Source: Candidatus Poribacteria bacterium
GTDB lineage: Bacteria > Poribacteria > WGA-4E > PCPOR2b
Direction of reading: 5' to 3'
NCBI GenBank assembly: GCA_965208325.1
Contig: OZ242326.1
Coordinates: forward strand, 3,552,001-3,616,000
Length of the DNA: 64,000 nt
Made by a program: the position numbers and the translations under genes. Of the stretch, positions 8,348-63,820 are shown piece after piece. The notes beneath the pieces are model-generated. The model searched no databases and was not told where the DNA came from. It saw only the letters and a list, made by a program, of their open reading frames with translations. How positions within the stretch are numbered: the first letter of the stretch is position 1; each line of letters opens with the position of its first letter.

Positions 8348-8513
8348 TGGGTTATAGCACAAAAATGGGAATTTGGCTGAGGTGGAGAAACCCCGCCTCA
8401 GCCAGTTAATAAATGGAACGAAATCATCCGGCAAGTTCTGCCGATAGGTTCACCAAAAAAGCTACGGTCGGGAGAATGCCGTTGTAAGATAATTTCTATA
8501 TTTGAGTCAGTGA

Positions 8514-8801
8514 GTGAACATTCGCATTGACATCGATCCGGCAAACGGCTTGCCTCAAAATTACCACCATGATGTTGATGAAAAGGAAAATGAGGAGGTG
8601 TTACGGAATCCGGGGGAGTATCGAGACGGGCGTGAAGAATCACGCGTTGCTATCGGTCAGACGCAAGCAGGACGCTACTTACGAGTCTTTTACGTTCCAG
8701 ATCCGCAACCTGATAGCGTGTTTGTAGTTACGGCATACGCATTGAAGGGCAAACCCTTAACGGAATATCAAAGAAGCCAACGAGGGAGAGGACGACGATA
8801 A
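8514..8801 (+). CDS. Putative type II toxin (DUF4258/BrnT-like)
   Basis: 95 aa; EEVLRNP...IGQTQAGRYLRVFY...VFVVTAY pattern; its stop overlaps the start of the next small gene. Confidence 0.65.
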   Translation: MNIRIDIDPANGLPQNYHHDVDEKENEEVLRNPGEYRDGREESRVAIGQTQAGRYLRVFYVPDPQPDSVFVVTAYALKGKPLTEYQRSQRGRGRR

Positions 8802-9016
8802 ACCAGAACAAATTTCCCCTCAACTGGAATGAAAAACGGGTTCAGAAGGTCGTCACCCATTACGAAAAACAGGCGGCGGATGAAGCCACGGCCGAAGATG
8901 AAGTTGCATTTGCGGATTCATCTCAAACAGTTATACAAATTCCTCAAGAATTAATTCCAATTGTTAGCGAACTAATTGCCAAGCATTCAGGTAATAAAAC
9001 CGTACAACCTAGTTAA
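8798..9016 (+). CDS. Putative cognate antitoxin with an ATA start (possibly a pseudogene)
   Basis: Not in the ORF track. Open frame (I/M)NQNKFPLNWNEKRVQKVVTHYEKQAADEATAEDEVAF...LIAKH; the junction reads ATAA where an ATGA coupling is expected. Confidence 0.55.
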   Translation: MNQNKFPLNWNEKRVQKVVTHYEKQAADEATAEDEVAFADSSQTVIQIPQELIPIVSELIAKHSGNKTVQPS

Positions 9017-9257
9017 CGAAGCGTGGCAGCTTTCTAAGTCTCAAGCTGTTGGAACGCTTGCTAAATGTAGGCACCAGCCGATTCACCAGGAGGAACCTTG
9101 AAAAAATAGGAGGTTTTCTACACTAGCGAATGTCCAAAGTATACCGACCGATAAGCCTATTCCGTCTATCAATCGCCGGTTAGCTTAGGTAAGCGTAGTT
9201 TGTTGCAAGTGTTGATTCGGGTTGTTGGGTGCAAGTAGGGGCATCACTAAAGGGGCA

Positions 9258-9962
9258 ATGGATCTTCAGGAAGCCAAAATTCAATTAGACGATGAAGGTT
9301 TTTGCGTATTGGAAGACCAGATCGATGCGCACGAAGCCGATTACCTTAACATGCGAGCGTGCGACCTGATGGAGTCTACTCTAGGGCAGGGAACGTATCT
9401 TAGCTTGGAGGGTTCATTGGACCTCATTCCTGAACTCGCGCCGCTATGCATCCATCCCTCTATTCTTGAATTGGCAGAAACGGCGCTGGGGGAAAATTTT
9501 ATCCTTGCAAACAATGTCGCTATGAAGTTGTGTAAACCCGGGGCGGGATTGGGAGGATTACACGTGGATTGGCCGTTACCGAGTATCCCGAAGCCTTGGC
9601 CAATTTCGCCCACAGGATTGGCGGCGTTCTGGATGCTCACGGACTTTACAGCGAAGAACGGTGCGACTGCGGTGATTCCGTTTAGCCATCATACGCGGCG
9701 AGATCCTATTTCCAACCGTACATATCAACATGAAGTACCTGTCGTCGGGAAAAAGGGATCGGTGTTAGTTTTTGTCAACGGAATTTGGCATCGCAGCGGC
9801 GCAAACACTACCCAGAATGAAAATCGTATGGCCGCCAGCGTATTTTATGTGCCTTCTTTTATCTACCGCCCCAGAGATGGCTGGCCAATTATGAAGCGGC
9901 ATGTCTACGATAAATTCCCGCCACAATTGCAAATACTGTTGAAACGGTCGGTTGAAGAGTAA
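9258..9962 (+). CDS. Phytanoyl-CoA dioxygenase (PhyH) family Fe(II)/2-oxoglutarate oxygenase
   Basis: LDDEGFCVL, HVD iron motif, WMLTDFTAKNGAT, WHRSGAN...R. Confidence 0.9.
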   Translation: MDLQEAKIQLDDEGFCVLEDQIDAHEADYLNMRACDLMESTLGQGTYLSLEGSLDLIPELAPLCIHPSILELAETALGENFILANNVAMKLCKPGAGLGGLHVDWPLPSIPKPWPISPTGLAAFWMLTDFTAKNGATAVIPFSHHTRRDPISNRTYQHEVPVVGKKGSVLVFVNGIWHRSGANTTQNENRMAASVFYVPSFIYRPRDGWPIMKRHVYDKFPPQLQILLKRSVEE

Positions 9963-43999: not shown

Positions 44000-45154
44000 C
44001 TAACTAGACCAGATTGGCGTCAAGACCTTCGTCAATTGAAGAAGGCTTTTCAGGTTGTGAGCTGGCAAGAAATGGTCGACATGCAGCAAAGCGGTACGTA
44101 TTCCTCGACAGAGCGGTTGGTAACCTTCGCATCCAAGCAAGGGGTTCAGCCAAATCACTTTGTATGCGCGGCGATGCAACATCTCCATTGCCGTCCGCAG
44201 CAAATTCGGATCGCCTCGATCCCAACCATCACTGATCAAAATTACAACGGACCTGTAGGCTGAGAATGACGGTGCAAACTCCCGATAAAAGGCGATGAGG
44301 CTTTCACCAATTTTTGTTCCGCCTGACCAATCTGGCACGACCTGTGCTATCTCACGAAGTCCGTCTTCGACTGTTTTGCGCCGCAAAATGCCGGTAATGT
44401 TGGTCAGCCGTGTGCTAAAGATTGCCGCCTCGATTTCCACAATTTCTCGCTGCATCCCGAAAATAAACTGGATAAGAAATTTCGAGTAACAGTCCATGGA
44501 AGCGCTGACATCGCAGAGCAGCAAAATTTTGTTCTTCTTAACTTTCCGGCGCTTACGGATTAGCTTCAACGGTTCACCACCGTAGGCAATGTTTTTTCGC
44601 CAACTGCACCGAAAATCGATTGTATCCCCTTTGATGCCAACTTTCCGGCGGCGGCTCAATTTGGTCGCCAGGAGGGACGCAAATTTAGCGATGATTTGGC
44701 GTGCTTCCTCAATGTCGGCCGCTGTGTAATGACTGAAATCCTTTTGGGTCAAAACATCATTAGGACTATACGCGATTGCGTCCTCTTTATCTCTGTCTTC
44801 ATCCTCATCAACCTCCCCCCATTCTCCCAGATTAAACATTTTGTCATCATCAGCGAAACTCTGCGGATCGGATGTCGACTTGGCTTCAATTGCTTCAAGC
44901 GCCAATGCCTTCAAGTCGGGGCGCGGGTGTTGCCAGAACAGATTGAAAGCGGTATCAAAAAGCGCCCGATCTGATTCACTCGCGATCAGGTTTGTTCTGG
45001 CTGCGTGGTAAAAATCGCCGCGCTGCGTTATATCAATCCATTCAAGACTTCGACAAAAGCTAATTTGGTTTGTCGTCGTCACATTTACGCCTATCTGCTT
45101 AAGCAATCGACAGAACACGGCGATTTCTTGAAGGAGGGTGCTTTGATTAACCAT
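44000..45154 (-). CDS. coxE: CoxE-like VWA domain protein
   Basis: DVSASM, FSTRL, WSGGTKIG, ISDGWDRG, WLNPL. Confidence 0.88.
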   Translation of the reverse strand: MVNQSTLLQEIAVFCRLLKQIGVNVTTTNQISFCRSLEWIDITQRGDFYHAARTNLIASESDRALFDTAFNLFWQHPRPDLKALALEAIEAKSTSDPQSFADDDKMFNLGEWGEVDEDEDRDKEDAIAYSPNDVLTQKDFSHYTAADIEEARQIIAKFASLLATKLSRRRKVGIKGDTIDFRCSWRKNIAYGGEPLKLIRKRRKVKKNKILLLCDVSASMDCYSKFLIQFIFGMQREIVEIEAAIFSTRLTNITGILRRKTVEDGLREIAQVVPDWSGGTKIGESLIAFYREFAPSFSAYRSVVILISDGWDRGDPNLLRTAMEMLHRRAYKVIWLNPLLGCEGYQPLCRGIRTALLHVDHFLPAHNLKSLLQLTKVLTPIWSS

Positions 45155-46137
45155 TATAGATTGTTAAATACCCTCAACGACGCCGCTTGCGAGCGAACAG
45201 CAGATTTATCATCTCCAATTTTCTCAAAGATTGTGTCCGGAGGTAGTTTGGCTCTATTTACCAGTTCACCAATGTTAACTTCCCGTACACACTGAATGTC
45301 GTCCTGAAATTTGAAGATACAACCCAGCGTTTCCTCAACGACGTTTGAATCCAATCCATCCTTTCCCAGCGCGATGAGCGCCAGTCCCCAATCCAGCGTC
45401 TCCGCGATTCCCGGTTTTTTATAGTAGTCGCCTTCACGGAAGAACTGCATCATGTTGCAGAGCTGTTGAGCGAGTGCGTCATTGATGTGCGGCAGTTTAG
45501 TCTTGACAATCGACAATTCCTTCTCGACCGAGGGGTAATCAATCCACTGGTAGAGACACCGGCGTTTTAGGGCTTCGTGAACCTCCCGCGTTCGGTTTGA
45601 AGTCAAGACTACGCAAGGGATATGCTTCGCCTCGATAGTCCCGATTTCCGGGATTGTAATCTGAAAATCCGATAAGATTTCAAGGAGGAAAGCTTCAAAC
45701 TCGCTGTCACTTCGATCGACTTCATCAATGAGCAGGACTGGTGGAACTGCGCCATCACTCTGAATAGCTTCGAGGAGTGGGCGCTTTAACAAGAAAACCT
45801 CACTGAAAATGTCTACACCAATCCGATCCTTGTCAATTCCCCGCGCCTCGTCAATTCGTAGTTGAAGCATCTGTTTGGTATAGTTCCATTCGTACAGGGC
45901 ACTGTTCGCATCAAGGCCTTCGTAGCATTGCAGTCGGATAAGTTTCCCGCCTGTTGCATCCGCTAAAACGCGCGCCACTTCTGTTTTACCGACGCCGGAT
46001 TCCCCTTCAAGGAAGATTGGTTTGTTCAGATGACTGGCTAGGAAAACCGTTGTTGCTAACGCTCGGTCAGCAATATAGTGATGATTCGCAAGTGCGTCCT
46101 GTATTGCTTGGATGGAGTGGAACATAATTACGGCCAA
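45154..46137 (-). CDS. coxD: CoxD-like MoxR AAA+ ATPase
   Basis: GESGVGKT, RLQCYEGLD, LIDEVDR, TSNRTRE, ALKRRC. Confidence 0.9.
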   Translation of the reverse strand: MAVIMFHSIQAIQDALANHHYIADRALATTVFLASHLNKPIFLEGESGVGKTEVARVLADATGGKLIRLQCYEGLDANSALYEWNYTKQMLQLRIDEARGIDKDRIGVDIFSEVFLLKRPLLEAIQSDGAVPPVLLIDEVDRSDSEFEAFLLEILSDFQITIPEIGTIEAKHIPCVVLTSNRTREVHEALKRRCLYQWIDYPSVEKELSIVKTKLPHINDALAQQLCNMMQFFREGDYYKKPGIAETLDWGLALIALGKDGLDSNVVEETLGCIFKFQDDIQCVREVNIGELVNRAKLPPDTIFEKIGDDKSAVRSQAASLRVFNNL

Positions 46138-46194
46138 TCCTTCATGGTAATACGGTGCGTGTTACGCATTGCCTAATTCCTAACCGGTACCCTA

Positions 46195-46845
46195 TCAGCG
46201 CACAACCACGTCCCTTAATGCTTCCAAGTAATCTTCACGGTAGTCGATGTCTCTAATCACACGATCGGTATCGACAACGACGTAATGAATGTCGTGCGCA
46301 TACTTTCGAAAAAGCGATCTGACACCGCCGTTCTCCGGTTCAAGCGCGAGGATGTCGGCGGCGTAACGGCGATCGAAAATGACGGGATGTCCTCGTCGAT
46401 TGTCATAGCTCGGAAGCGTAATCCCGCGGTCAGTTTCTGCGTACGCGTCAACTACCAGATTAATTAGATTGGATGTGATGAACGGTTGATCTACGAGCGT
46501 CAGAGCGAAGGCTTCCGCTGAATCGGAAATCGAACGCACGCCGCACTGCGCAGAGGTCAGCATCCCGCTCCGATATTCGGTATTAAACACAATCTTGACC
46601 GGTTTGTGCTCAATGCACGCTTTAACCTTTTCCGCTTCATGCCCTATTACGACAACGACGTCGTCGAGTTTCGATCCCAGCAGGTTATCAGTTACGGTTT
46701 CGATAATGGTACTTCCCTCGAATGGCAGAAGTTGTTTCGGTTCGCCGATGCGAGTGGATAGCCCGGCTGCGAGGATAATTCCCGATATTTTGGGGTTCAT
46801 TTTTGTCAGAATACAGACATAATTCGGCAAAAATTCAGCGTGCAA
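46195..46845 (-). CDS. mocA: Molybdenum cofactor cytidylyltransferase (MocA-like)
   Basis: ILAAGLSTR..PKQLL, VDQP, GHPV, DID; adjacent to coxD and coxE. Confidence 0.85.
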   Translation of the reverse strand: MHAEFLPNYVCILTKMNPKISGIILAAGLSTRIGEPKQLLPFEGSTIIETVTDNLLGSKLDDVVVVIGHEAEKVKACIEHKPVKIVFNTEYRSGMLTSAQCGVRSISDSAEAFALTLVDQPFITSNLINLVVDAYAETDRGITLPSYDNRRGHPVIFDRRYAADILALEPENGGVRSLFRKYAHDIHYVVVDTDRVIRDIDYREDYLEALRDVVVR

Positions 46846-50433: not shown

Positions 50434-51648
50434 TTACGCCCATTGACGAAACTTGGACTTTTTTAGTATCGACAAAAAGAACCCAGCCTCAACGGAATCA
50501 GGCAAAGGTTTCAATCGCCCTTTGTCAATTTTGTGAAGCACCTTCTTAACGTCGAGTGGTGCACCTTCCGTTAGAGGATCGGTGGAACCTGAAACTATAG
50601 CGTACAATAGCCAGTCCCGTTTCTGTGGGTCTAACGTCTCGTCCGTGCCTTCCACAAATCCTTCACTTGATGTTATCGTCGTGACAAGTTCGGCAGGACT
50701 GGCATTTTCACCTGTCGTGTGTGCTTCAATTAGACTCTTTATCCATGACCGTTCAACCTTGTTAAACGTTCTGTTACACCATTGTACGACCGTATCGGTT
50801 GCTAATTGACCGTCAATCCTTTTATTGATCTTCTTAACGTTCTCATTGAATTCGCGTTTGATTGTAGTGCGCCTCTTATTTGTCGCATCACGTATAACTT
50901 TGGATTCATGAGCAACAATGCCTTCAATCCGCGTTTTAAGTTCTCTGTCTATTTTGTTTAACACCCTCTGGAATGTTGTTCTAGTCGCGCGCATTTTAGC
51001 GTCAATATCTGAGATCGTTTCAATACCTTCTTTTTGAATATCGACAACCGTTCCGCGACCTGCTTTTTTCTCATTATCAATTACGCCTTGAATACGAAGC
51101 CTTGCAGCTCTCCGCGCTTCTTCGCGCTCAACTATCGTATTGGTTTCACGGTTAAGTTTTTTTATGGATTCGTCTTGCGCTATTTTCAGTCTATTGATAA
51201 CAGCATCCGTTTCCGCCTCGATTTCGCCAACTTTTGTTCTTGTCTCCTGCTCTGATAATCCCCGTTTTCTCTGCAACTCTGACAATTCAGCATCCCGTGC
51301 TGTTTCTGTATCAATTCTTAGGTTTTCGGCATCGGCTTTCGCTTGCGCAACTTCAGGACTGGTGTGTTTTATTGCTTTGAGATCTGCCAATAACTCATTT
51401 TCAAGTGCGCGTAAATCTTCATCATGTTTCAATTTAGCCTTGTAAAGTTCGGCATCGCGTTTCTTCTCGTAAGGTGCGCTAACCTCCTCTTTTGCTTCGC
51501 GGACAATCCGAACAATTTCGTCGCTGTTATTCCTTAGGAAGTTTCCTAAATCAGCTTCCGACATCACTCTGTCGTTCATAAGTTCACCAACAAATTCGTA
51601 AAGAACTCTAAACGTTTGGCCGATACCTTCGCGTCCATGTTTCGGCAC
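50434..51648 (-). CDS. Long coiled-coil hypothetical protein, possibly 5'-truncated
   Basis: 404 aa, rich in E/K/R/A helical heptads; weak start context. Confidence 0.55.
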   Translation of the reverse strand: MPKHGREGIGQTFRVLYEFVGELMNDRVMSEADLGNFLRNNSDEIVRIVREAKEEVSAPYEKKRDAELYKAKLKHDEDLRALENELLADLKAIKHTSPEVAQAKADAENLRIDTETARDAELSELQRKRGLSEQETRTKVGEIEAETDAVINRLKIAQDESIKKLNRETNTIVEREEARRAARLRIQGVIDNEKKAGRGTVVDIQKEGIETISDIDAKMRATRTTFQRVLNKIDRELKTRIEGIVAHESKVIRDATNKRRTTIKREFNENVKKINKRIDGQLATDTVVQWCNRTFNKVERSWIKSLIEAHTTGENASPAELVTTITSSEGFVEGTDETLDPQKRDWLLYAIVSGSTDPLTEGAPLDVKKVLHKIDKGRLKPLPDSVEAGFFLSILKKSKFRQWA

Positions 51649-52002: not shown

Positions 52003-53814
52003 TTAAATGTCCCACAACAGCACTGTGCCATCGGTGCTTCCGCTGGCAAGCGTTTTTCCGTCTGGGCTAAATGCTACGCCATTCACTTGGGCCGTATGCC
52101 CGGAGAGCGTCCGGCGAGGTTTTCCCGTGCTGACATCCCATAAACGGACGGTGTTGTCCACACCCCCGCTTGCGATGTTGTGTCCATCGGGACTAAAGGC
52201 TACGCTCTCGACACATCCCTTATTCCCAGAGAGGGTGCGGAGGTGTTCGCCCGTACCAACTTTCCATAAACGGACGGTGAGGTCCCCACTCCCGCTTACG
52301 ATAGTTTGTCCATCGGGACTAAAGGCTACGCTCTCGACACGTTCCTGATGCCCAGAGAGTGTGCGGATTTGCTCGCCCGTGCTAACTTCCCATAGAAGGA
52401 TGGCGCCATCCGAGCTCCCGGTGGCGAGTGACTGTCCATCGGGGCTAAAGGCTACACTAGTGACGTGATTCTTAATCCATGTAAGTGTGTAAAGTTGTCT
52501 ACCTGTATTAACATCCCATATGATGGTTCTGGTTAAATCCCCGGTGGCGAGCATGTGCCCGTTGGGGCCAAACGCTATGTTATAGGCACTAATACAATCT
52601 CCGAGGGTGTGGAGGCGGTTGCCTGTGCTAACGTCCCATAAGATGATGTCTCCCACGCTCCCAGAAGCGAGTATCTGCCCATCTGGACTAAAAGCTACGC
52701 TCTCGACACTAGTCCGATGCCATGAAAGTGTGCGGCTGTGTCTACCCATACCAAACTCCCATAGATGAACTCTTGCGCCGAAATCACCCGTGCCCCCGCT
52801 AGCGAGCGTGTGTCCATCTGGACTAAAGGCGACACTCAGGACACTTTCCTGATGCCCAGAGAGTGTGTGGACGTGTTCGCCCGTGGCAACATTCCAAAAA
52901 CGGACGGTGTTGTCTGAGCTCCCGGTAGCGATAGTGGTTCCATCGGGACTAAAGGTTACGCTATTGACATCATGCGTATGCCCCGAGAGAGTGAAAAGAT
53001 GTTTCCCAGTGCCAACCTCCCATAAATAGATGATACCACGAGGGTAAGTTTGGCCTCCACTTGCCAGCGTGTTTCCATTTGGACTAAAGGCTAGGCTCAC
53101 ACTGTCTCCTGGAGGCCCAGAGAGGGTGTAGAGGTGTACACCGTCAACGCTCCATAAACATATGGAATTGTCCCTGCTTCTGCTAGCGAGCGTGTGTCCA
53201 TCCGGACTGAAAACTATACGTTTCAAATCGGAGGTATGCCCTCCGAGCGTGTGTATGAGTTTGCCCGTGCCAACATTCCATAAACGAACGGCATGGTCCC
53301 TCCATCCACCTGCGCTGGCGAGTGTTTCTCCACTGGGACTAAATGATATACTGACGACACCACCCGTATGCCCCGAGAGGGTACGGACGTGTCCGCCTGA
53401 GCCAACATCCCATATACGGATGGTACCGTCATGGCTTCCGCTAGCGATGATATTTCCGTCCAGACTAAAGGCTACGGTATTGACAATATCCGTATGTCCT
53501 GTGAGTGCACGGAAATGCCTACCCGTGTTGACATCCCAAAGACGGATACTTTCGTCCCAATTCCCGGTAGCGATTGTATTTCCATCCGGACTAAACGATA
53601 CGCTCAGGACATCACTCGTCGAATGCCTTGCGAGGAGAGCGAGCTCTTGACGGGTTTCAACATGATAAAGCCAAACGCCGATAGAGGTCGCGACCGCCAG
53701 ACGTGTATCGTCAGGAGAATACTGTATTTCCCTTATTATGCCTTTGCCCAAGCGGAGTTTTGCACTTTCGGGTAAACTGAATTGCGTATAGTCTAGTTCA
53801 AGCGGGTTATCCAC
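52003..53814 (-). CDS. WD40-repeat beta-propeller protein
   Basis: About 13 repeats of GH...V.SVAFSPDG..LASGS.D.TVRLW; N-terminal YTQFSLPESAKLRLGKG. Confidence 0.95.
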   Translation of the reverse strand: MDNPLELDYTQFSLPESAKLRLGKGIIREIQYSPDDTRLAVATSIGVWLYHVETRQELALLARHSTSDVLSVSFSPDGNTIATGNWDESIRLWDVNTGRHFRALTGHTDIVNTVAFSLDGNIIASGSHDGTIRIWDVGSGGHVRTLSGHTGGVVSISFSPSGETLASAGGWRDHAVRLWNVGTGKLIHTLGGHTSDLKRIVFSPDGHTLASRSRDNSICLWSVDGVHLYTLSGPPGDSVSLAFSPNGNTLASGGQTYPRGIIYLWEVGTGKHLFTLSGHTHDVNSVTFSPDGTTIATGSSDNTVRFWNVATGEHVHTLSGHQESVLSVAFSPDGHTLASGGTGDFGARVHLWEFGMGRHSRTLSWHRTSVESVAFSPDGQILASGSVGDIILWDVSTGNRLHTLGDCISAYNIAFGPNGHMLATGDLTRTIIWDVNTGRQLYTLTWIKNHVTSVAFSPDGQSLATGSSDGAILLWEVSTGEQIRTLSGHQERVESVAFSPDGQTIVSGSGDLTVRLWKVGTGEHLRTLSGNKGCVESVAFSPDGHNIASGGVDNTVRLWDVSTGKPRRTLSGHTAQVNGVAFSPDGKTLASGSTDGTVLLWDI

Positions 53815-53905: not shown

Positions 53906-54544
53906 TCATCGCGGTAGTGAGCCATATTTGGCAAACTCATTTGCCACCACCTCTGCAAGCTGCCGCACAATCTGTTCTGCATCATCAATGTCAGCTCTGG
54001 AATAAGAGGTTTCAACAAGGTTACTTGAATCAAGTTCTTGAATGCCGACCGCAAATTTATTTTCTGAACGGTGATAAAAGCGAGCCAATCCTCTTTGTAT
54101 CAGTGGCATACGCAACTCCTCTTCCCAACGAAGTGAAATTTCATCAAGGAGAATCGCACGGTATCCTTGGGGGGTCATATCAACTCGTAAGATAAATCCC
54201 CCCAAACTTAAATCATGACCTAAGTTGAATCGAAGACGAACGCGGGAGTCGATAGTCGTAATCTTTTCATTTTGGAACCAATTTATGTAAGCATCAAAAC
54301 GCGCTAGGGAGTTTTGAATCCTAGGTTTATTATTTAGTCTATAACTTTGAAACAACTTCTTGGTATACTCCCTAGCTTCTTGTAAATTCCCATCTCGGTG
54401 AAAGCGACAAATTCCTTCGCGGAGACAATGGTTGTAACTTGTTCCACGAAAAGTTGTATTAACTTGTTTTGAAACCCATTGGGACGGATTTCGCTGGCAT
54501 TGGGCAAGTTGACTGTGGCTGATTTTACTATGAGCGATTCTCAT
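53906..54544 (-). CDS. Degenerate RecB/AddB-like (PD-(D/E)XK fold) protein, last gene of the Qat-like operon
   Basis: ISHSQL..C..NP, GT..NH.L, L.G.I.RVD and ILLDE follow the RecB-family motif order but without DYK; ATGA overlap with the qatC-like gene. Confidence 0.45.
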   Translation of the reverse strand: MRIAHSKISHSQLAQCQRNPSQWVSKQVNTTFRGTSYNHCLREGICRFHRDGNLQEAREYTKKLFQSYRLNNKPRIQNSLARFDAYINWFQNEKITTIDSRVRLRFNLGHDLSLGGFILRVDMTPQGYRAILLDEISLRWEEELRMPLIQRGLARFYHRSENKFAVGIQELDSSNLVETSYSRADIDDAEQIVRQLAEVVANEFAKYGSLPR

Positions 54545-55842
54545 GACAGAAACGGGGTTAGGGCGGCATACCGACTGAGTACGGTCCGTGCTTCCCGTGA
54601 AAATCGTCTATACATTTCAATAACTTTATCAGCGTTAAGATTAAGCGAGTATAGTTCAGGCCACTCACTCATAATGTCTTCAGCTGACGATTCCTCGATT
54701 TTTACGACGAATTCCGTCAAATCGACGATGTTCCGCCGACCTATGTCCTCAGGGTCTATTTGACTGATTTTCTCTTCCCAACAATTTCTACCATATGCTG
54801 TCGAATCTTCAAAAATTAGGAATTCAACAGCGATACGCCGAATAAAGCATGGAATACATGCGCCGCAATGTGTGATACCAGCAGGAAGACGAGAATTACG
54901 CCAACAACTGTTTGTTATCGGAATTATGTCGGGAAAGAGGTTTATGACCTTCTTGACAACTTCTGCTTTCGTCAAATGAACATACGGATTTAAAATTTGG
55001 AACGGCGCATCGAGTGCTTCCGCCAAAAAGACCTCCATACCGACTAAAATGTCTGGATGGGCTGTATGTGTGGAGAATGCTCCAATTCGACCTTGCGTCA
55101 ACGGTAGATGAATAGCCATCTGTCCATTCTCCGCGAGATAGACTATTTCGACTTGCCCCGTTCGGCGCGCTACAAGCGCACCGAGCACAAGAAAGAGAAA
55201 CGAGCGTGTTCGTTGACTACTTTCTACGTCATGGTCCAATTGGCTTGGTCCGCCGTCCCGCGAAGAAACGAAAAATCGGTAGTGCGGGAGATTCAATCCA
55301 CGATTTTTTAGTTCTGCAGCTAAATTTATCTGTGCCTGCGCTGTTGCCCGATTTCGTGTTATGTGGCTTACGAGTTGTAGCGTTTTCTCCTTTTGGCCAA
55401 ACTCGATGGCGGCAGCAAGCGAGTCCAATCCTCCGGAAAAGAGAAGTGTTCGCCCGCCTCCTTGAGTAACCTGTATATTCTTTTCGGGATCGCCAGATAC
55501 TTGTCTCAAATTAACCCTCCAGGCGTCATTTGAGAGATTTCGGAGAATCTCTTCGATTCTCGAAGTGATTGGCTGTAAGCGAATAGAATTGACAACCGGT
55601 ATCTGTAGTTCAATTCGTCTGGAAATGTCCTCTCGGACACCACGGGCCGTGGCTCGGTCTGCCGCAAAGATGGACGCACCAATCAGCAACAAATCCGATT
55701 CCAAACTCGTCAACGATCCAAATACTTTCTCAAAACGATCTTCTCCTGTAGACAGGTTCTTTCCCACTTCAAGTATGTGATCGCATTTTCCATCCTCATT
55801 GCCTCCTCGACGGACAAAATATGAAATCATTGCGTACTCCAC
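54541..55842 (-). CDS. qatC: QueC-like protein of the QatC type
   Basis: N-terminal extension (DLL.I...IFAADR...R); PP-loop LFSGGLDS; QRTRSFLF; ENG; STHTAHP; NPY..TKAEVV; zinc motif SC..HCGACIPCFIRR. Confidence 0.8.
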   Translation of the reverse strand: MEYAMISYFVRRGGNEDGKCDHILEVGKNLSTGEDRFEKVFGSLTSLESDLLLIGASIFAADRATARGVREDISRRIELQIPVVNSIRLQPITSRIEEILRNLSNDAWRVNLRQVSGDPEKNIQVTQGGGRTLLFSGGLDSLAAAIEFGQKEKTLQLVSHITRNRATAQAQINLAAELKNRGLNLPHYRFFVSSRDGGPSQLDHDVESSQRTRSFLFLVLGALVARRTGQVEIVYLAENGQMAIHLPLTQGRIGAFSTHTAHPDILVGMEVFLAEALDAPFQILNPYVHLTKAEVVKKVINLFPDIIPITNSCWRNSRLPAGITHCGACIPCFIRRIAVEFLIFEDSTAYGRNCWEEKISQIDPEDIGRRNIVDLTEFVVKIEESSAEDIMSEWPELYSLNLNADKVIEMYRRFSREARTVLSRYAALTPFLS

Positions 55843-56399
55843 TCTCCGCTAAGGGATGCAATCACGGCAGAAATATAATTCCGCCATCCTCGTGGATTGG
55901 CGGTTATGGGGGCTACGGCTCTTGCGGCATCGCGTGCGATGTTACGCAGATTTTCTTTGAGAGCGATCGAATCGGTTGTTGTTTGAATACGCCCCGAAGC
56001 CCCGACGAAGGAAGGTAAATCGCGGGAAGCATAGTATGATATAGCTTCAGCAAAAAGTTCTGCAGCAAACCCAACGGAACCGCTTTCGGTTGCTGATGCA
56101 CGTGCCAACGCTCGTTTGGCCATATCAAAAGTGAGACCTACTGCGTACTGTTCATTCAATGAATGGTTAAATGATTGAACAGCGTTTGCGGGCGGTAACC
56201 TCTGCTCGGCAATTTCACACGCCGACGCTATTAATGGATTCGCCAACTCTTCAATCAATCGTCCATCTCGATCCATAACGGCCGATCGCCAGAGTTCCTC
56301 GCTCTGTCGCTCGACAGGCCAGTTCAAGTCGCCTAATACAGCTAGCACTGGTCGCCAGTTGGGTGTATTCGGGGATGATTGATTGCTCGATGTTCCCAC
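55827..56399 (-). CDS. QatB-like protein with an N-terminal MGTS motif
   Basis: GGAG RBS, GTG start, MGTSSNQSSP..W; helical; immediately upstream of and overlapping the qatC-like gene. Confidence 0.6.
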   Translation of the reverse strand: MGTSSNQSSPNTPNWRPVLAVLGDLNWPVERQSEELWRSAVMDRDGRLIEELANPLIASACEIAEQRLPPANAVQSFNHSLNEQYAVGLTFDMAKRALARASATESGSVGFAAELFAEAISYYASRDLPSFVGASGRIQTTTDSIALKENLRNIARDAARAVAPITANPRGWRNYISAVIASLSGEWSTQ

Positions 56400-56401
56400 G
56401 A

Positions 56402-57331
56402 CTAAACTCCGTTTTTTATACGTTCATCATCAACAGCCTGCAATTCTTTCTCAATGACGCTGAAATGAATACGTCCGCCCTTAAAAACTTGATTCCACCG
56501 GATACCATTACGAACGTCTGGTTTCCGTCTGAAAAGATTGACAGTTGCCGCAAGAACATTGGCATCAATAAAAGATAAGGGCACTTTGGCTTCAGCGCTA
56601 AATTCCAGACACAGTTCTAATAATCGAGCATCGTCCTGTTTAAATTCGGAAGAAGAGACAAGTGCCCCGTACAATTCCACATGACCACGCTGCCTGACGC
56701 GTTGCTGTTCAACATATTCAGCGAGCGGGCGTAACTTCGACCATACGACGTTAAAGCCGTCAGCAGATGCTTTTGTATCAACGACGAGGATCTGGCTTGT
56801 AGGTATTTGAGCCAGCATATCGCTGACACGACGACCACTTAAACGACCACCCAATCTTCTAACACGGCGTCCGAAAATAAATTCTAATCCGGAACAGACC
56901 AAATCCTCAAAAATTAACCACGCTTCGCCTTGTGTTTCACCAGCGGGCAACTGGTTCTTTGCGGCGGTTATCAAAGCTTGCTCGTACTCCGGGCTGAGCG
57001 CATGCCACGATGGAACCGCCCCACCAAGTGCTTCAGTAAAGTCTTCCCACGAAATTGTCTTTTCACTTGGTATGGGAGATACAATAACTGGGGTACGATT
57101 TTGATTTTGAGCGGAATGGTAAATGTCATCGATCTCCGGCTCAGACAGTTCATCAAGATCGGTGACAGCAATCAGGTATGGGATGCTCGCCCCAAGAATA
57201 TCTGTTCGTTTACATCGAATTTCGATATGACGAGGTTGCCTATGGCTACCCTCTATAGAATAGCCGGCAACGATTAGTGTCCGAGTAGCGGTTTGCGTTT
57301 GGGGGAAAGTTAAGTGACCGTCGTCCACCAT
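56402..57331 (-). CDS. PD-(D/E)XK restriction-endonuclease-like protein, first gene of the Qat-like operon
   Basis: C-terminal FEDLV...LEFIFG...LGG...VSD...VVDTK motif; probable start MVDDG after AGGA. Confidence 0.6.
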   Translation of the reverse strand: MVDDGHLTFPQTQTATRTLIVAGYSIEGSHRQPRHIEIRCKRTDILGASIPYLIAVTDLDELSEPEIDDIYHSAQNQNRTPVIVSPIPSEKTISWEDFTEALGGAVPSWHALSPEYEQALITAAKNQLPAGETQGEAWLIFEDLVCSGLEFIFGRRVRRLGGRLSGRRVSDMLAQIPTSQILVVDTKASADGFNVVWSKLRPLAEYVEQQRVRQRGHVELYGALVSSSEFKQDDARLLELCLEFSAEAKVPLSFIDANVLAATVNLFRRKPDVRNGIRWNQVFKGGRIHFSVIEKELQAVDDERIKNGV

Positions 57332-57570
57332 TTTATTCCTGCTTGATCGAATTATCCCTTTATTGCTAAGATTCGATTCCATTTGCAACACTCAATTTGA
57401 GACGTATTCATTACAGAGCCATTCAGAAAATCTGCTAGTTAGAGAAAGATTAGTGTTGGCAGCTTTCAGTTGGGTTTTTATCGCCATTGCTATTCGCTCG
57501 CTTAATTCGTTGGTAAGGGGGAGGATATACCGAACAGATTCAGAATTTGGAGCAGAGTTCATTTATTCTT

Positions 57571-59997: not shown

Positions 59998-60450
59998 CTA
60001 TCGTGTTGTTGCCGATTGTGCCAGTGTCTCAACGCCTTTAAAGAATTTGCCGATTGTCATTTTGGCTGCCCCAGTGATGATTCTTTGACCGACGCGGGCA
60101 AGTTTTCCGCCGACATTCAATTTTCCATCAAGTGCGACTCCGGTCTGATTTTGTTCGGTTTCCTTCAGTGTAAAATCGCAGAAGCCATTGATGAATCCAA
60201 TCTTGCTGGCGCCTTCGACGACGAGCCGGTATGCTAACACCGGTTGTTTGTTTTCCATCTTCACAATGCCGGTATACACGCCTTTGATTCCAGCAACGCC
60301 GACATTTAGTACCGCTTCGTAAGCGTCATCGCCAATCGATTTGAGTCCTTCACATCCTGGGATACACTGCTGCAGGTACTCAGGATGTGTAAGATACTCC
60401 CAAACTCTTGCAGGAGCCGCAGAAACTGTGTATTCGCCTTTGATTTTCAT
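59998..60450 (-). CDS. coxG: CoxG / SRPBCC family protein
   Basis: VWEYL..P..L..CIPGC, VGGKLA.VGQR. Confidence 0.88.
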   Translation of the reverse strand: MKIKGEYTVSAAPARVWEYLTHPEYLQQCIPGCEGLKSIGDDAYEAVLNVGVAGIKGVYTGIVKMENKQPVLAYRLVVEGASKIGFINGFCDFTLKETEQNQTGVALDGKLNVGGKLARVGQRIITGAAKMTIGKFFKGVETLAQSATTR

Positions 60451-60605
60451 GGTTACATTGCCTCAACCGGCACTGCAACTGATACCGGTATTGGCACCGG
60501 TTCATCCAATATCGCTAGATTGTATCTATCTTGGCGGGGAACTGCTAGTGCTTTCTCATACTGCTAAAGTTATCGGCTTCACTGGTGGATAGTGCAGTAC
60601 AAATA

Positions 60606-61463
60606 TCAAGAGGCGGCGCTTTCGATTGCACGATGGGTATACACTCTCGCCAAATTCTTGCGGTATGCCTCGCTGGCGTGGATATCTTCTAAAACATCAT
60701 CTACACCATCAACGGCTTTTTCTGCGGCTGCGGCAATGTTTTCAGCAATGAGGGCTTTGCCTCTCAAATCTGATTCAACGCTCGCCGCCCGGTAAGGAAC
60801 ATTAGAGACACCGGTAACGCCGACAGCAAGGTTTTGGCAAATATCTCCAACCTGCGAGAGGATAACCGCAACGCCAGTAAGGGCAAAGCCGGATGCAATC
60901 TGAGGCAGCTTCAGGTATGTCCCTTTAGTGTTTGCGCCGGGTATGGGCACGTGAATTTCAGTAATAATTTCTTCCGGCTCAATCGCGGTCGTATACAAAT
61001 CTTCAAAGAACTCGGACGCTTTAATTGAGCGTTCACCACCTTGGCCGACGGCTTTAATTTCAGCGTCGAGCGCGAGAACCGCAGCGGGCCAATCGGCGGC
61101 TGGATCGGCATGCGCAAGGCTGCCCCCGATGGTGCCTTTATTGCGAACCTGAACATCGCCAATCGCAGCCGCAGTTTGTGCAAGCAGCGGAATCTTCCGA
61201 TGCGCTAAATCTGACGTCTCAAGTTCATAGTGCGTCGTGAGTGCGCCGATAATCAATGTACCGCTCGACTCGGATATCCCCTTTAAGGCGCCGATTTGAT
61301 TCAGGTCAACGATTACATCGGGTTCAGCCAACCGCAACTTCATGGTTGGAATTAGACTATGTCCTCCGGCGAGTAGCTTTGCGCCCTCTCCATTTTCTTT
61401 CAAGAGCGCCAAGGCCTCATCAACTGACGTCGGTGCAATGTATTCAAAACTTCCCGGAATCAT
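60606..61463 (-). CDS. coxM: CO dehydrogenase-like FAD (medium) subunit
   Basis: LAGGHSLIP.MKLR, QVRNKGTIGGSLAHADPAAD, YR. Confidence 0.92.
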   Translation of the reverse strand: MIPGSFEYIAPTSVDEALALLKENGEGAKLLAGGHSLIPTMKLRLAEPDVIVDLNQIGALKGISESSGTLIIGALTTHYELETSDLAHRKIPLLAQTAAAIGDVQVRNKGTIGGSLAHADPAADWPAAVLALDAEIKAVGQGGERSIKASEFFEDLYTTAIEPEEIITEIHVPIPGANTKGTYLKLPQIASGFALTGVAVILSQVGDICQNLAVGVTGVSNVPYRAASVESDLRGKALIAENIAAAAEKAVDGVDDVLEDIHASEAYRKNLARVYTHRAIESAAS

Positions 61464-63820
61464 TACTCACTCACTCCTTTCTTTGCGTCTTCAATCACCT
61501 GCCACACGCGATTCGGTGTCAAAGGCATCTCAATATCCTTAACGCCCAATGGAGACAAGGCGTCCACAACTGCATTGACGATGCACGCCGTTGATGCAAT
61601 TGTTCCGGTTTCACCCACTCCCTTGACGCCCATTGGATTTGCGGGAGATGGTGTCACGGTGTAGTCATTTTCAACACTTGGCACTTGTGTGGCTTTAGGG
61701 ACAGCGTAGTCCATCAGCGATCCGGTCAGGAGTTGACCGTTTTCATCGTAAACCGCGCCCTCGTACAACGCCTGGCCTAACCCTTGTGCGATGCCGCCAT
61801 GTACTTGTCCGGTAACCAGCAGCGGATTGATGATATGTCCGATGTCATCCACTGCAACATACCTCTGAATGTCGATTTCCCCAGTGTCGGGGTCAACCTC
61901 AACAATCGCAATGTGGGCACCAAACGGGTTTGTAAATTTTTCCGGTTCAAAGAAATGCGTCGCTTCAAGTCCGGGCTCGATATCCGGCGGTAGATTCACG
62001 GCGTTGTGAGCCGCAGCAGCAACAGTTGCGAACTCGACAGCTTGCGCGGGCGAACCTTGGACGAAAATTTTTCCATTTTCGAACACAAGATCGTCGGGAT
62101 TCGCTTCCAGCAAATGCGCCGTGAGTTTTGCCATTTTATCCTTCACTTGGCGCCCCGCGACAAGCATTGCTGTTCCGCCGACGGGGGTTGCCCGGCTGCC
62201 GAACGTCCCGATTCCCTGAGGCTGCCGGCCTGTGTCGCCGTGGATAACCGCAATATCATCGATATCAACTCCCAACTCATCGGCCATGATTTGGGCAAAG
62301 CTAGTTTCCTGCCCTTGCCCGTGCGGCGAAACACCTGTCAAAACAGTTACCTTTCCGGTGCGTTCAATTCGAACGGTACTGCTTTCCCAGCCGCCGCCGG
62401 CTACGCCGATTGACGGCCCAAATCCGCTGATTTCCGCATAAGTGCAGATACCAATTCCCACGTATTTTCCCTGCTTGCGACGCGCCGACTGCTGGTCACG
62501 CAGGTCGTCATAATTGATAATTCCCAACGCCTTGTTGAAAGTTTCCTGATAGTTCCCGCTGTCGTAGATGATTCCAGTCGGAATTTCAAATGGAAATTCG
62601 TCCGGCTGCGGGAAGTTCTTGAATCGGATATCTTTTGGATCCATTCCCAGTTTTTGTGCGGCAAGGTCTACCATGCGTTCGATGATGTAGGTCGCTTCCG
62701 GACGCCCTGCACCGCGATAGGCGTCTGTCGCCATTTTGTTCGTTAAGACGCCAATCAATTCCAATTTGATATTGGGGATTTTATAAGCCCCCGGAATCAT
62801 GAGATATGTCAGAACAGGAATAATCGGTGTGAGCAACTGATAGTAGGCTCCCATATTGGCGAGCAGTTTGGCGCGAAGCCCTGTGATGGTCCCGTCGTTA
62901 TTGACTGCGATCTCAACGTAGTTGATTTGATCCCGCCCGTGAATGGTTGATGTGAAGTTTTCGCCGCGTTTTTCAATCCATTTCACAGGTTTGCCGAGTT
63001 GAATCGCCAAATATGCTACCACAGCCTCTTCCGCGTACACATTAAGTTTACTGCCGAAGGCGCCGCCTACCTCAGGCGCGATGACACGGATTCTGTGTTC
63101 AGGAAAATCTACAAGAAGCGACAGGAATGTTTTGAGATGATGCGGGATTTGCGTTGACGACCAGACAGTCAATGTCCCTTCTCCGCGGAGGTATTCGGCT
63201 AAAACCCCCCGCGGTTCCATTGCAATCGGGATAAGTCGTTGATTCACAAGGCGATGCGAAATTACGTGGTCCGCTTCGGCAAAAGCCTTGTCAACATCGC
63301 CGGCATCCAACGGCATGGTAAAAGCGATATTGTCACCAAATTCTTCGAAAATAACTGGCGAGTCTGGTTCGATAGCTTTATCCATATCTACGACAACCGG
63401 TAACTCTCGGTACTCAATTTCAATCAGATCCAACGCGTCTCGGGCGATATAGGGGTCAGTTGCTACGACCGCTGCAACAGGTTCACCAACGAATCGCACG
63501 CGTCCTACAGCTAGAGCGGGGTGATCGGGAATTTTAAGACCCTCAATTTCCGCGGCGCAGGGAACTGAACTGACTTTTTCCCTAATATCCTCTCCGGTGA
63601 TTACCGTAACAACGCCGGACAAACGCTTCGCCGCTTCCGTATCAATATTTTCGATTTCTGCGTGCGCGTAGTCGCTGCGGAGAAATGCACAGTGCAGCGT
63701 ATTTACCATTTTAAGGTCATCGACATAATGAGATAGCCCCTGGATTAACCTTGGATCTTCGCGCCGCTTAATGGGAGCGCCAATCAACCGGCTGGGTCCT
63801 GCTAGAGTCGCCATCAGCAT
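61463..63820 (-). CDS. coxL: Form II CO dehydrogenase-like molybdopterin (large) subunit
   Basis: RREDPRL, GGAFGSK, AYRGAGR (form II signature), GTFGSR, GQVHGGIAQG, KGVGE. Confidence 0.9.
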   Translation of the reverse strand: MLMATLAGPSRLIGAPIKRREDPRLIQGLSHYVDDLKMVNTLHCAFLRSDYAHAEIENIDTEAAKRLSGVVTVITGEDIREKVSSVPCAAEIEGLKIPDHPALAVGRVRFVGEPVAAVVATDPYIARDALDLIEIEYRELPVVVDMDKAIEPDSPVIFEEFGDNIAFTMPLDAGDVDKAFAEADHVISHRLVNQRLIPIAMEPRGVLAEYLRGEGTLTVWSSTQIPHHLKTFLSLLVDFPEHRIRVIAPEVGGAFGSKLNVYAEEAVVAYLAIQLGKPVKWIEKRGENFTSTIHGRDQINYVEIAVNNDGTITGLRAKLLANMGAYYQLLTPIIPVLTYLMIPGAYKIPNIKLELIGVLTNKMATDAYRGAGRPEATYIIERMVDLAAQKLGMDPKDIRFKNFPQPDEFPFEIPTGIIYDSGNYQETFNKALGIINYDDLRDQQSARRKQGKYVGIGICTYAEISGFGPSIGVAGGGWESSTVRIERTGKVTVLTGVSPHGQGQETSFAQIMADELGVDIDDIAVIHGDTGRQPQGIGTFGSRATPVGGTAMLVAGRQVKDKMAKLTAHLLEANPDDLVFENGKIFVQGSPAQAVEFATVAAAAHNAVNLPPDIEPGLEATHFFEPEKFTNPFGAHIAIVEVDPDTGEIDIQRYVAVDDIGHIINPLLVTGQVHGGIAQGLGQALYEGAVYDENGQLLTGSLMDYAVPKATQVPSVENDYTVTPSPANPMGVKGVGETGTIASTACIVNAVVDALSPLGVKDIEMPLTPNRVWQVIEDAKKGVSE

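Follow-up and report, generated by a model that had tools for sequence, protein, structure and literature searches.

A short-tailed QatB-like protein and its QatC-type partner in a compact four-gene cassette of Candidatus Poribacteria

The QatB-QatC pair has been placed at the core of Qat anti-phage defence by three 2026 papers (PMC13279940, PMC13376578, PMC13639016). The pair is encoded in the middle of the four-gene operon QatABCD, which further comprises the KAP NTPase QatA and the TatD nuclease QatD, and a 1:1 complex of QatB and QatC is sufficient for defence against some phages (PMC13279940). Here we describe a related gene pair in Candidatus Poribacteria, located in a window of 64,000 nucleotides (the whole stretch of DNA that was analysed; contig OZ242326.1 of assembly GCA_965208325.1, positions 3,552,001 to 3,616,000). 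In the list of open reading frames (ORFs), the gene in question lies at 55827..56399 on the minus strand and encodes a 190-aa protein, which an earlier note made from the sequence alone had taken to be the N-terminal glycine acceptor for deazaguanylation by the product of the adjacent QueC-like gene. On the basis of its predicted structure, we conclude that the 190-aa protein is a remote, short-tailed QatB homologue of a distinct family, and it is likely the N-terminal-glycine substrate of its QatC-like neighbour. It probably takes the place of QatB in a compact anti-phage cassette of the Qat kind, in which a FokI-like nuclease, the QatB-like protein, the QatC-like enzyme and a Cas4-fold protein are encoded by four consecutive genes.

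The chemistry proposed for such pairs derives from the type IV cyclic oligonucleotide-based antiphage signalling system (CBASS), in which Cap9 conjugates 7-amido-7-deazaguanine (NDG) onto Gly2 of the CD-NTase CdnD after cleavage of the initiator methionine (10.1101/2025.04.06.647259). In canonical QatB, the MGTS start, Pro16 and Trp18 are conserved, and the exchange G2D or deletion of residues 16-22 abolishes defence (PMC13279940). Edman sequencing identified glycine as the N-terminal residue of canonical QatB (PMC13376578), and the QatB N-terminus also mediates binding of QatD (PMC13639016). Mutation of the ATP-binding or catalytic residues of QatC leads to the loss of canonical Qat defence, and the enzyme carries Thr278 and Thr280 instead of the Tyr and Asp residues that read the nucleobase (PMC13279940). 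The earlier note had treated deazaguanylation as established for both enzymes; this is the case for Cap9, with NDG found on Gly2, whereas for QatC it is a supported proposal only. Two questions arise from the Qat papers, namely what QatC attaches to the N-terminus of QatB and how phage is restricted thereby.

The 190-aa protein and its QatC-type neighbour

The 190-aa protein and canonical QatB have in common an MGTS start with an invariant Gly2 and a P-x-W motif, often as SPxxPxW, in the N-terminal tail; the all-helical globular fold of QatB is also predicted for the 190-aa protein, and both are encoded directly 5' of a QatC-type enzyme, to which they are translationally coupled. The tail (codons 1-15, 56355..56399, minus strand) reads M-G-T-S-S-N-Q-S-S-P-N-T-P-N-W. 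Homologues were collected with a word-indexed search, which gave 184 at E<=1e-3, 120 of which were listed and are nearly all 185-193 aa long, and with phmmer run exhaustively on 1.84 billion cluster representatives, which found 243 (187 at <=1e-10), 150 of them listed. Among the 120 listed homologues, 114 open with [M/V/L]GTS (MGTS 107, VGTS 6, LGTS 1), the other six being MNTS, MGHS, one N-truncated sequence and three with extra residues called 5' of the motif. The same start is seen in 114 of 145 further cluster representatives (MGTS 105, VGTS 8, LGTS 1), and 26 of the other 31 are shorter than 180 aa, most of them starting inside the protein. The earlier note had made its proposal depend on conservation of MGTS among homologues, which is what these counts show. 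Alignment of 46 diverse members shows no variation at G2, S4, P10 and W15, nor at ten positions within the body of the protein, and among 228 members starting with xGTS, S9 is found in 225, P10 in 217 and W15 in 221, while a P-x-W with the tryptophan at position 15 is found in 174. The tail motif of the family can thus be written as MGTS-x4-SPxxPxW, and we propose that Gly2 is the acceptor and that S9-P10-x-x-P13-x-W15 serves as an anchor. Canonical QatB proteins from plasmid sequences mostly show MGTS-x9-SPxxPxW, with W20 present in 112 of 115, so that the gap between the two motifs is five residues shorter in the 190-aa protein; the QatB proteins of Sulfuricurvum and Hymenobacter retain only P-x-W. 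All named homologues of the 190-aa protein are annotated as 'hypothetical protein', and a search for longer or fused forms gave none at E<=0.001 among 6,815 candidates, which is weak evidence.

The AlphaFold2 model of the protein has nine helices, a mean predicted local distance difference test (pLDDT) value of 91.1 and a predicted template modelling score (pTM) of 0.86. Mean pLDDT is 55 for residues 1-10, 61 for residues 11-20, 89-98 for residues 21-180 and 80 for residues 181-190. In the model, residues 1-15 form a tail and residues ~16-189 an all-helical QatB-fold domain, with the helices beginning at residue 16; the low values in residues 1-20 agree with the flexible N-terminal tail expected in the earlier note, though the tail is short. 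When compared with VIA-align, the model matched QatB chain 9y01_A with a Z-score of 10.0 and a root-mean-square deviation of 3.7 A over 154 aligned residues (model residues 13-189 versus chain residues 64-285, 10% identity) and QatB chain 9y02_A with a Z-score of 9.3, the best non-QatB entry reaching 4.0. The query was a predicted model and not an experimental structure, the match came from the top 895 chains of Foldseek and, as a caveat of the tool, helical folds can attain such Z-scores by arrangement alone. Despite this caveat the match is trusted, because its Z-score exceeds all others by six units and almost the entire domain is aligned, and because QatB is the one protein predicted by gene context and tail motif. 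Foldseek against the PDB gave no match to the model at E<=0.001 (best 0.63), and VIA-align of 48,161 structure representatives gave none at Z>=5 (best 4.7), QatB evidently not being among these representatives.

At the level of sequence the relationship is faint. Neither phmmer nor the family profile found QatB among the PDB sequences, and searches of Pfam, NCBIfam and PADLOC with the 190-aa protein gave nothing at E<=0.1. Aligned with hhalign to two canonical QatB alignments, the family scored probabilities of 43% and 42% with E ~2.5e-4, over residues ~80-165 versus QatB residues ~103-219, a match that is suggestive only, and hmmsearch between the family and QatB gave only E>=0.003, on tiny databases. 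The two groups also differ in size, the canonical QatB sequences fetched being ~250-276 aa long versus 190 aa here. Canonical QatB contains a disordered linker of 30-90 residues (PMC13279940). In the structural alignment, residue 13 of the model sits opposite QatB residue 64, and this linker would therefore be missing in the 190-aa protein.

The first codons of the gene, GTG GGA ACA TCG AGC AAT CAA TCA TCC CCG, encode M-G-T-S-S-N-Q-S-S-P, and the GTG at 56399-56397 is the earliest possible start after the in-frame stop. The TAG stop of the preceding gene, which codes for a 329-aa protein, is followed after 2 nt by this GTG, and a GGAG ribosome-binding site (56407..56410, minus strand) lies 7 nt 5' of it, inside the end of the 329-aa gene. 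For comparison, 18 related loci were collected from one-genome-per-species contigs via a single peptide pattern, with genes located by tblastn, and their number is accordingly a lower bound. The Poribacteria loci L002-L004 keep GGAGTTTAG-N2 ahead of the start of the 190-aa gene, and L001 has AGAG in place of GGAG. The aligned start codon is ATG in 12 of the loci, GTG in five and GCG in one (L018). A different true start was ruled out, as an upstream in-frame start is absent and conservation sets in at the GTG codon. The start and N-terminal sequence read by the earlier note are thus borne out by the reading frame, by the ribosome-binding site and by the homologues, 17 of 18 loci having ATG or GTG at this codon. 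The overlap with the QueC-like gene, which had likewise been noted, holds for either start of that gene: it amounts to 16 nt if translation begins at GTG 55842, or to 4 nt (ATGA) if it begins at ATG 55830, as in the homologous loci L003, L005, L013, L014 and L015. The latter start, which would give a protein of 429 aa, is the more likely of the two.

The overlapping gene (54541..55842, minus strand; 433 aa from GTG 55842) encodes a QatC-like QueC-family PP-loop enzyme. It matches PADLOC QatC at 2.9e-55 and the solved QatC chains 9zee_B and 9vlk_A at 3.7e-28 and 3.6e-26, respectively, so that the neighbour described as QueC-like in the earlier note can be specified as QatC-type by three libraries and with an intact active-site signature. 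Invariant in 17 cassette enzymes are S136, D140 and S141 (S136-G-G-L-D140-S141), H160, R213, F217, T258 and T260 and the cysteines C313, C326, C329 and C332, which in the alignment with 9zee_B correspond to S156, D160, S161, H180, R233, F237, T278 and T280 and the four Zn cysteines of the Pseudomonas aeruginosa enzyme. In the same alignment, the stretch facing the QatB-contacting loop N265-H282 is gap-free, and the Zn loop is 7 residues shorter than that of 9zee_B. The motifs RxRxxxF, ExG, HP and P(x)4TK are found in the cassette enzymes, in line with the QatC-cluster motifs given by Libby et al. (PMC13329287), and the canonical QatC signature is kept in the enzyme of the window with SGGxDS, T-x-T, the Zn cysteines, RxRxxxF, HP and P(x)4TK. 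Identity to the 25 listed plasmid QatC matches is 27-33%. In a tree of the 17 cassette enzymes, seven canonical QatC sequences and the genome's own QueC, one branch parts the cassette group from canonical QatC with support 71/98; 84% of the bootstrap trees agree, and several canonical QatC sequences sit on long branches. We regard this split as moderately supported.

The cassette and its surroundings

The 190-aa gene is flanked by the 329-aa gene and the QatC-like gene in all 18 loci, and the fourth gene, coding for a 212-aa protein, is found in 16 of them, being missing in L006, while the contig of L017 stops inside the QatC-like gene. All three partners are therefore present in 16 of 18 loci, which are spread over five phyla, the hosts comprising Poribacteria (four loci, of which two share an assembly), Bacteroidota, Acidobacteriota, Nitrospira and Gemmatimonadales. 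The genes are separated by gaps of 0-3 nt or overlap slightly, 2-nt gaps and 4-nt overlaps being among these junctions, and the source genome has a single copy of the cassette. L002 and L004, on different contigs of one Poribacteria assembly, encode 190-aa proteins that are 78% and 71% identical to that of the window. In the Acidobacteriota locus L006, the QatC-like ORF (6637-8070) is longer, at 477 aa, and tblastn gave no 212-aa homologue downstream of it.

Compared with QatABCD, the cassette has a putative FokI-like nuclease at position one and a degenerate Cas4-fold protein at position four. QatA was not found: the four cassette proteins gave no match to any NTPase family with Pfam, PADLOC and NCBIfam, and 16 flanking ORFs of the window gave none to the KAP family with Pfam. 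QatD is absent from the window and is encoded directly downstream in one of the 18 loci: in L012, from Gemmatimonadales, a QatD/TatD gene (8490-9338, plus strand; PADLOC QatD 1.4e-69, Pfam TatD_DNase 6.6e-47) directly follows the gene of the 212-aa homologue. L012 is a hybrid of the cassette and canonical Qat and ties the cassette to Qat. The likeness to type IV CBASS is one of analogy, as there a QueC-family enzyme is paired with a protein whose N-terminal glycine, exposed by methionine cleavage, enters the active site, with MGGS in place of MGTS (PMC13279940, 10.1101/2025.04.06.647259), and the same is proposed here. In contrast to type IV CBASS, the putative substrate has a fold unrelated to CD-NTase, and the enzyme is QatC-type with Thr/Thr for Tyr/Asp. 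An assignment to type IV CBASS itself was ruled out, as CD-NTase, Cap10/TGT and a cyclic-nucleotide effector are absent among the cassette proteins in searches of Pfam, PADLOC and NCBIfam. On two plasmids, divergent QatC-like genes are preceded by ORFs that start similarly, with MGTATRGQSG... in Halolamina (L024:2482-3322) and VGTNSAFGGSGTAAW... in Rhodococcus (L025:2478-3328); both upstream regions are annotated as two short hypothetical proteins each, and these ORFs may encode additional QatB-like partners, divergent or split, that begin with MGT, which suggests that other QatB-like families exist.

The products of both outer genes of the cassette are putative nuclease-fold proteins, of which the 329-aa protein alone retains a catalytic motif. 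The 329-aa protein (56402..57391, minus strand) is encoded by the first gene and has a putative C-terminal FokI-like PD-(D/E)xK cleavage domain, in which all 17 sequences compared share E162, D191, D205 and K207 (VVDTKA). Its nearest ESM-Atlas clusters carry PF09254 FokI_cleav_dom (score 0.96, 210/256 features), and in a profile search of the PDB the match to FokI was weak (E 0.53), with the DTK of its E...D...D-T-K motif placed on the DTK of FokI, a feature shared with type IIS-like nucleases. Weak matches were also obtained to RmuC, by six of 17 family members (best 3.1e-4), and to PADLOC REase_II (E 0.039), while the searches of NCBIfam at E<=0.1 and of Pfam at E<=1 returned no family. Unlike FokI-type nucleases, the protein has no methyltransferase partner in the cassette. 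It is probably the nuclease effector. Residues 1-130 belong to no recognised family and have invariant residues of their own (R37, T38, L39, G43, E57, G67 and I74); this half could be a sensor or partner-binding domain.

The 212-aa protein (53906..54544, minus strand), encoded by the fourth gene, is predicted to adopt a Cas4/RecB-like fold (AlphaFold2 pLDDT 91.0). With Foldseek its model matched 21 chains at E<=0.001, among them the AdnA nuclease domain (1.9e-7, TMq 0.70), the Argonaute-associated ACE1 (7.7e-7), Dna2 and Cas4, with all of which it would share its fold. Pfam, NCBIfam and PADLOC gave nothing for this protein at E<=0.1. In an alignment of 16 sequences, D122, the motif-II aspartate, is invariant, whereas the (D/E)xK position is variable (D134-E135-I136 in the window, consensus LLGxIP) and conserved Fe-S cysteines are absent, unlike in the Cas4/RecB family; these motif positions were assigned by eye with the secondary structure as a guide and not by structural superposition. 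With (D/E)xK and the Fe-S cysteines absent, the catalytic competence of the protein is doubtful; it is probably non-catalytic and may be a DNA-binding or adaptor subunit.

Within the window, the cassette is enclosed by a cox-type molybdenum dehydrogenase cluster of the cox/xanthine-dehydrogenase type, with genes for a CoxE-like VWA protein, a MobA-like transferase and an AAA ATPase on one side (44000-46845) and genes for CoxG, a FAD-binding medium subunit and a 785-aa protein (61463-63820), taken by eye as the large subunit, on the other (59998-63820). The GC content of the cassette is 0.42-0.49 versus 0.52-0.54 on the upstream side at 57.5-60 kb, and the region 48.5-57.5 kb, which is mostly of lower GC except for a WD40 gene, may be an insertion. 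The WD40 gene (52003-53814, minus strand) lies just 3' of the cassette and encodes a 603-aa protein made up almost entirely of WD40 repeats; it is not conserved at this place in the other loci. Further downstream, a 404-aa charged protein (50434-51648, minus strand), likely a coiled coil, has no Pfam match, a weak PADLOC match to ZorA (E 0.008) and no homologue in the 18 related loci. The flanks differ among these loci, and the 32 nearest neighbours include transposases (L001, L003 and L006), integrases (L005 and L010) and ParA (L004).

Proposed mechanism and competing explanations

The earlier note had described the 190-aa protein as the modified substrate of the QueC-like enzyme, and the part of this claim that stands is the partnership: with a predicted QatB fold, the MGTS and P-x-W motifs and a QatC-type neighbour, the protein is what one would expect as the N-terminal-glycine partner of the enzyme. 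The following sequence of steps may be envisaged. Met1 would be removed by methionine aminopeptidase, as expected from the rule for glycine at position 2 and as shown by Edman sequencing for canonical QatB, after which, judging from the homologous QatBC complexes of solved structure, the tail would be anchored by SPxxPxW with Gly2 set at the PP-loop site. The QatC-like enzyme would then adenylate a carboxylate first substrate with ATP, and attack by the alpha-amine of Gly2 would leave an amide adduct at the N-terminus. If Cap9 is taken as the model, this adduct would be NDG derived from 7-carboxy-7-deazaguanine (CDG); provided that the modification occurs at all, this identity is a tentative assignment to which we give rather less than an even chance. 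The tagged or untagged state of the 190-aa protein would in turn control an effector, most likely the 329-aa FokI-like nuclease, with the degenerate Cas4-fold protein acting as a DNA-binding or adaptor subunit. Gating of the neighbouring nuclease, which the earlier note had put forward, is a plausible hypothesis. A supply of CDG in the host is likewise plausible from its gene content: its QueC scores 211.8 bits against a cut-off of 150.3 bits, PTPS/QueD-like genes are present, and for one radical-SAM protein the five top-scoring models are all of QueE.

A number of observations weigh against this reading, beginning with the assignment of the two proteins. None of nine members of the 190-aa family matches NCBIfam NF041924 or PADLOC PDLC02211-02213 at E<=10, whereas both canonical QatB controls do, and the precomputed Pfam family PF28083 is found on 0 of 120 listed homologues versus all 120 listed canonical QatB sequences. 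With a tail of ~15 residues and no linker, the docking geometry must, judging from the model, differ from that of canonical QatB. The QatC-like enzyme scores 207.7 bits with the NCBIfam QatC model, under the curated cut-off of 280 bits, and its T258 and T260 stand where Cap9 and QueC have the deazaguanine-reading Tyr and Asp. The QueD-like and QueE-like proteins of the host are also under the curated NCBIfam cut-offs. For canonical QatC, in-vitro reconstitution of activity failed (PMC13279940; PMC13639016, with CDG, ATP and QatB), CDG did not stimulate its ATP pyrophosphatase activity, for which a first substrate of other identity was proposed (PMC13376578), and NDG on QatB was seen only at the peptide level (GTSKAY, LC-MS/MS, i.e. 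liquid chromatography-tandem mass spectrometry), the intact mass being unshifted (PMC13639016). As to the loci, only eight of 92 flanking ORFs, in six of 18 loci, match PADLOC models, a rate that has no baseline; these comprise a CRISPR-associated PD-DExK protein, a DRT fragment, QatD, PDC-S45, PDC-S02, REase II and type I methyltransferase pieces. Signs of decay are seen in four of the 18 loci: in L011, codon 4 of the 190-aa gene is a stop (L011:1119), L018 has the GCG at the start position with no in-frame start after the stop (L018:5998), and the matches are split in L016, where three genes are affected, and in L017, where the frame changes within the 190-aa gene.

The biochemical results on canonical QatC leave room for an attached group other than 7-deazaguanine, with Gly2 still acting as the acceptor as described but linked to another carboxylate, a metabolite or phage-derived molecule, that is adenylated by the enzyme. 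The invariant T258 and T260 at the nucleobase-reading positions (PMC13279940), the lack of stimulation by CDG (PMC13376578) and the unsuccessful reconstitution with CDG, ATP and QatB (PMC13639016) all point this way, whereas the NDG-bearing N-terminal peptide of QatB (PMC13639016) and a host that encodes QueC and likely QueD and QueE argue for a deazaguanine; on balance we consider this explanation possible but rather unlikely. That Gly2 is never modified, and that the tail instead acts as a non-covalent plug or pseudo-substrate in the active site of the QatC-like enzyme, regulating the enzyme or holding the complex together, would fit with the unmodified tail seen in the active site of solved QatBC structures (PMC13376578; PMC13639016), with an intact mass free of detectable modification (PMC13639016) and with in-vitro QatC activity being unreported in the available text of two papers (PMC13279940; PMC13639016). 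A free and strictly invariant Gly2, however, suits a nucleophile better than a plug, and the ATP-binding and catalytic residues, whose mutation abolishes canonical Qat defence (PMC13279940), are all invariant in the cassette enzymes, which makes the plug quite improbable.

Of about the same low probability, if not slightly lower, is that the cassette does not act against phage at all and is a DNA-repair, mobile-element maintenance or addiction module using a QatBC-type pair. Its location within a cox-type cluster of the window with no obvious defence island, the PADLOC matches within 6 kb in only six of 18 loci and the two accessory proteins with DNA-enzyme folds that are also used in repair could all be read in this manner. 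However, QatB and QatC, to which the pair is most closely related among characterised proteins, function in defence (PMC13279940), a QatD gene is added in one locus, the distribution over five phyla is patchy with transposases or integrases nearby, and the GC content lies under that of the flanks. The MG start might also have a different N-terminal role, as a degradation signal or as a site acylated by an unrelated enzyme, for instance, with the adjacency to the QueC-like gene being incidental. The pattern M-G-x-x-x-[S/T/N] resembles the eukaryotic N-myristoylation consensus, but bacteria are not known to possess N-myristoyltransferase, and the adjacent QatC-like gene in 18 of 18 loci, the predicted QatB fold of the 190-aa protein and the SPxxPxW motif common to its tail and canonical QatB leave very little probability for this explanation.

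Implications for Qat defence

The logic of the QatB-QatC pair and the N-terminal glycine are known, and what is new here is the short QatB family together with the accessory genes. The QatB fold and the MGTS...PxW tail reach well past what current models detect, and the QatBC core is found here in the absence of QatA and QatD and in the company of a putative FokI-like nuclease and a Cas4-fold protein. The available text of the three Qat papers describes only the ABCD architecture (PMC13279940, PMC13376578, PMC13639016), and the combination of QatC with FokI was not found in the literature searched, although the supplementary neighbourhood tables of PMC13329287, which lay outside the search, might list this context. 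According to Libby et al., qatA or qatD accompanies only ~34% of QatC-cluster genes (PMC13329287), and the cassette explains part of the QatC-cluster genes that lack such company.

The cassette provides an independent natural test of what is essential in Qat, with Gly2, PxW and T-x-T being kept and the long linker, QatA and QatD being dispensable, and its compactness and recognisable nuclease output make it suitable for biochemical studies. More speculatively, and with a likelihood that we place well on the doubtful side, QatB-QatC may represent a portable N-terminal-glycine-tag switch for varied effectors; here, the tagged short QatB would license the FokI-like nuclease, which may need dimerisation, and the catalytically dead Cas4-fold protein would serve as a DNA-end sensor or tag reader, as Cap10 does in type IV CBASS. 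If this were true, the four-gene system would be more tractable than QatABCD for identifying the group attached by QatC and its effect.

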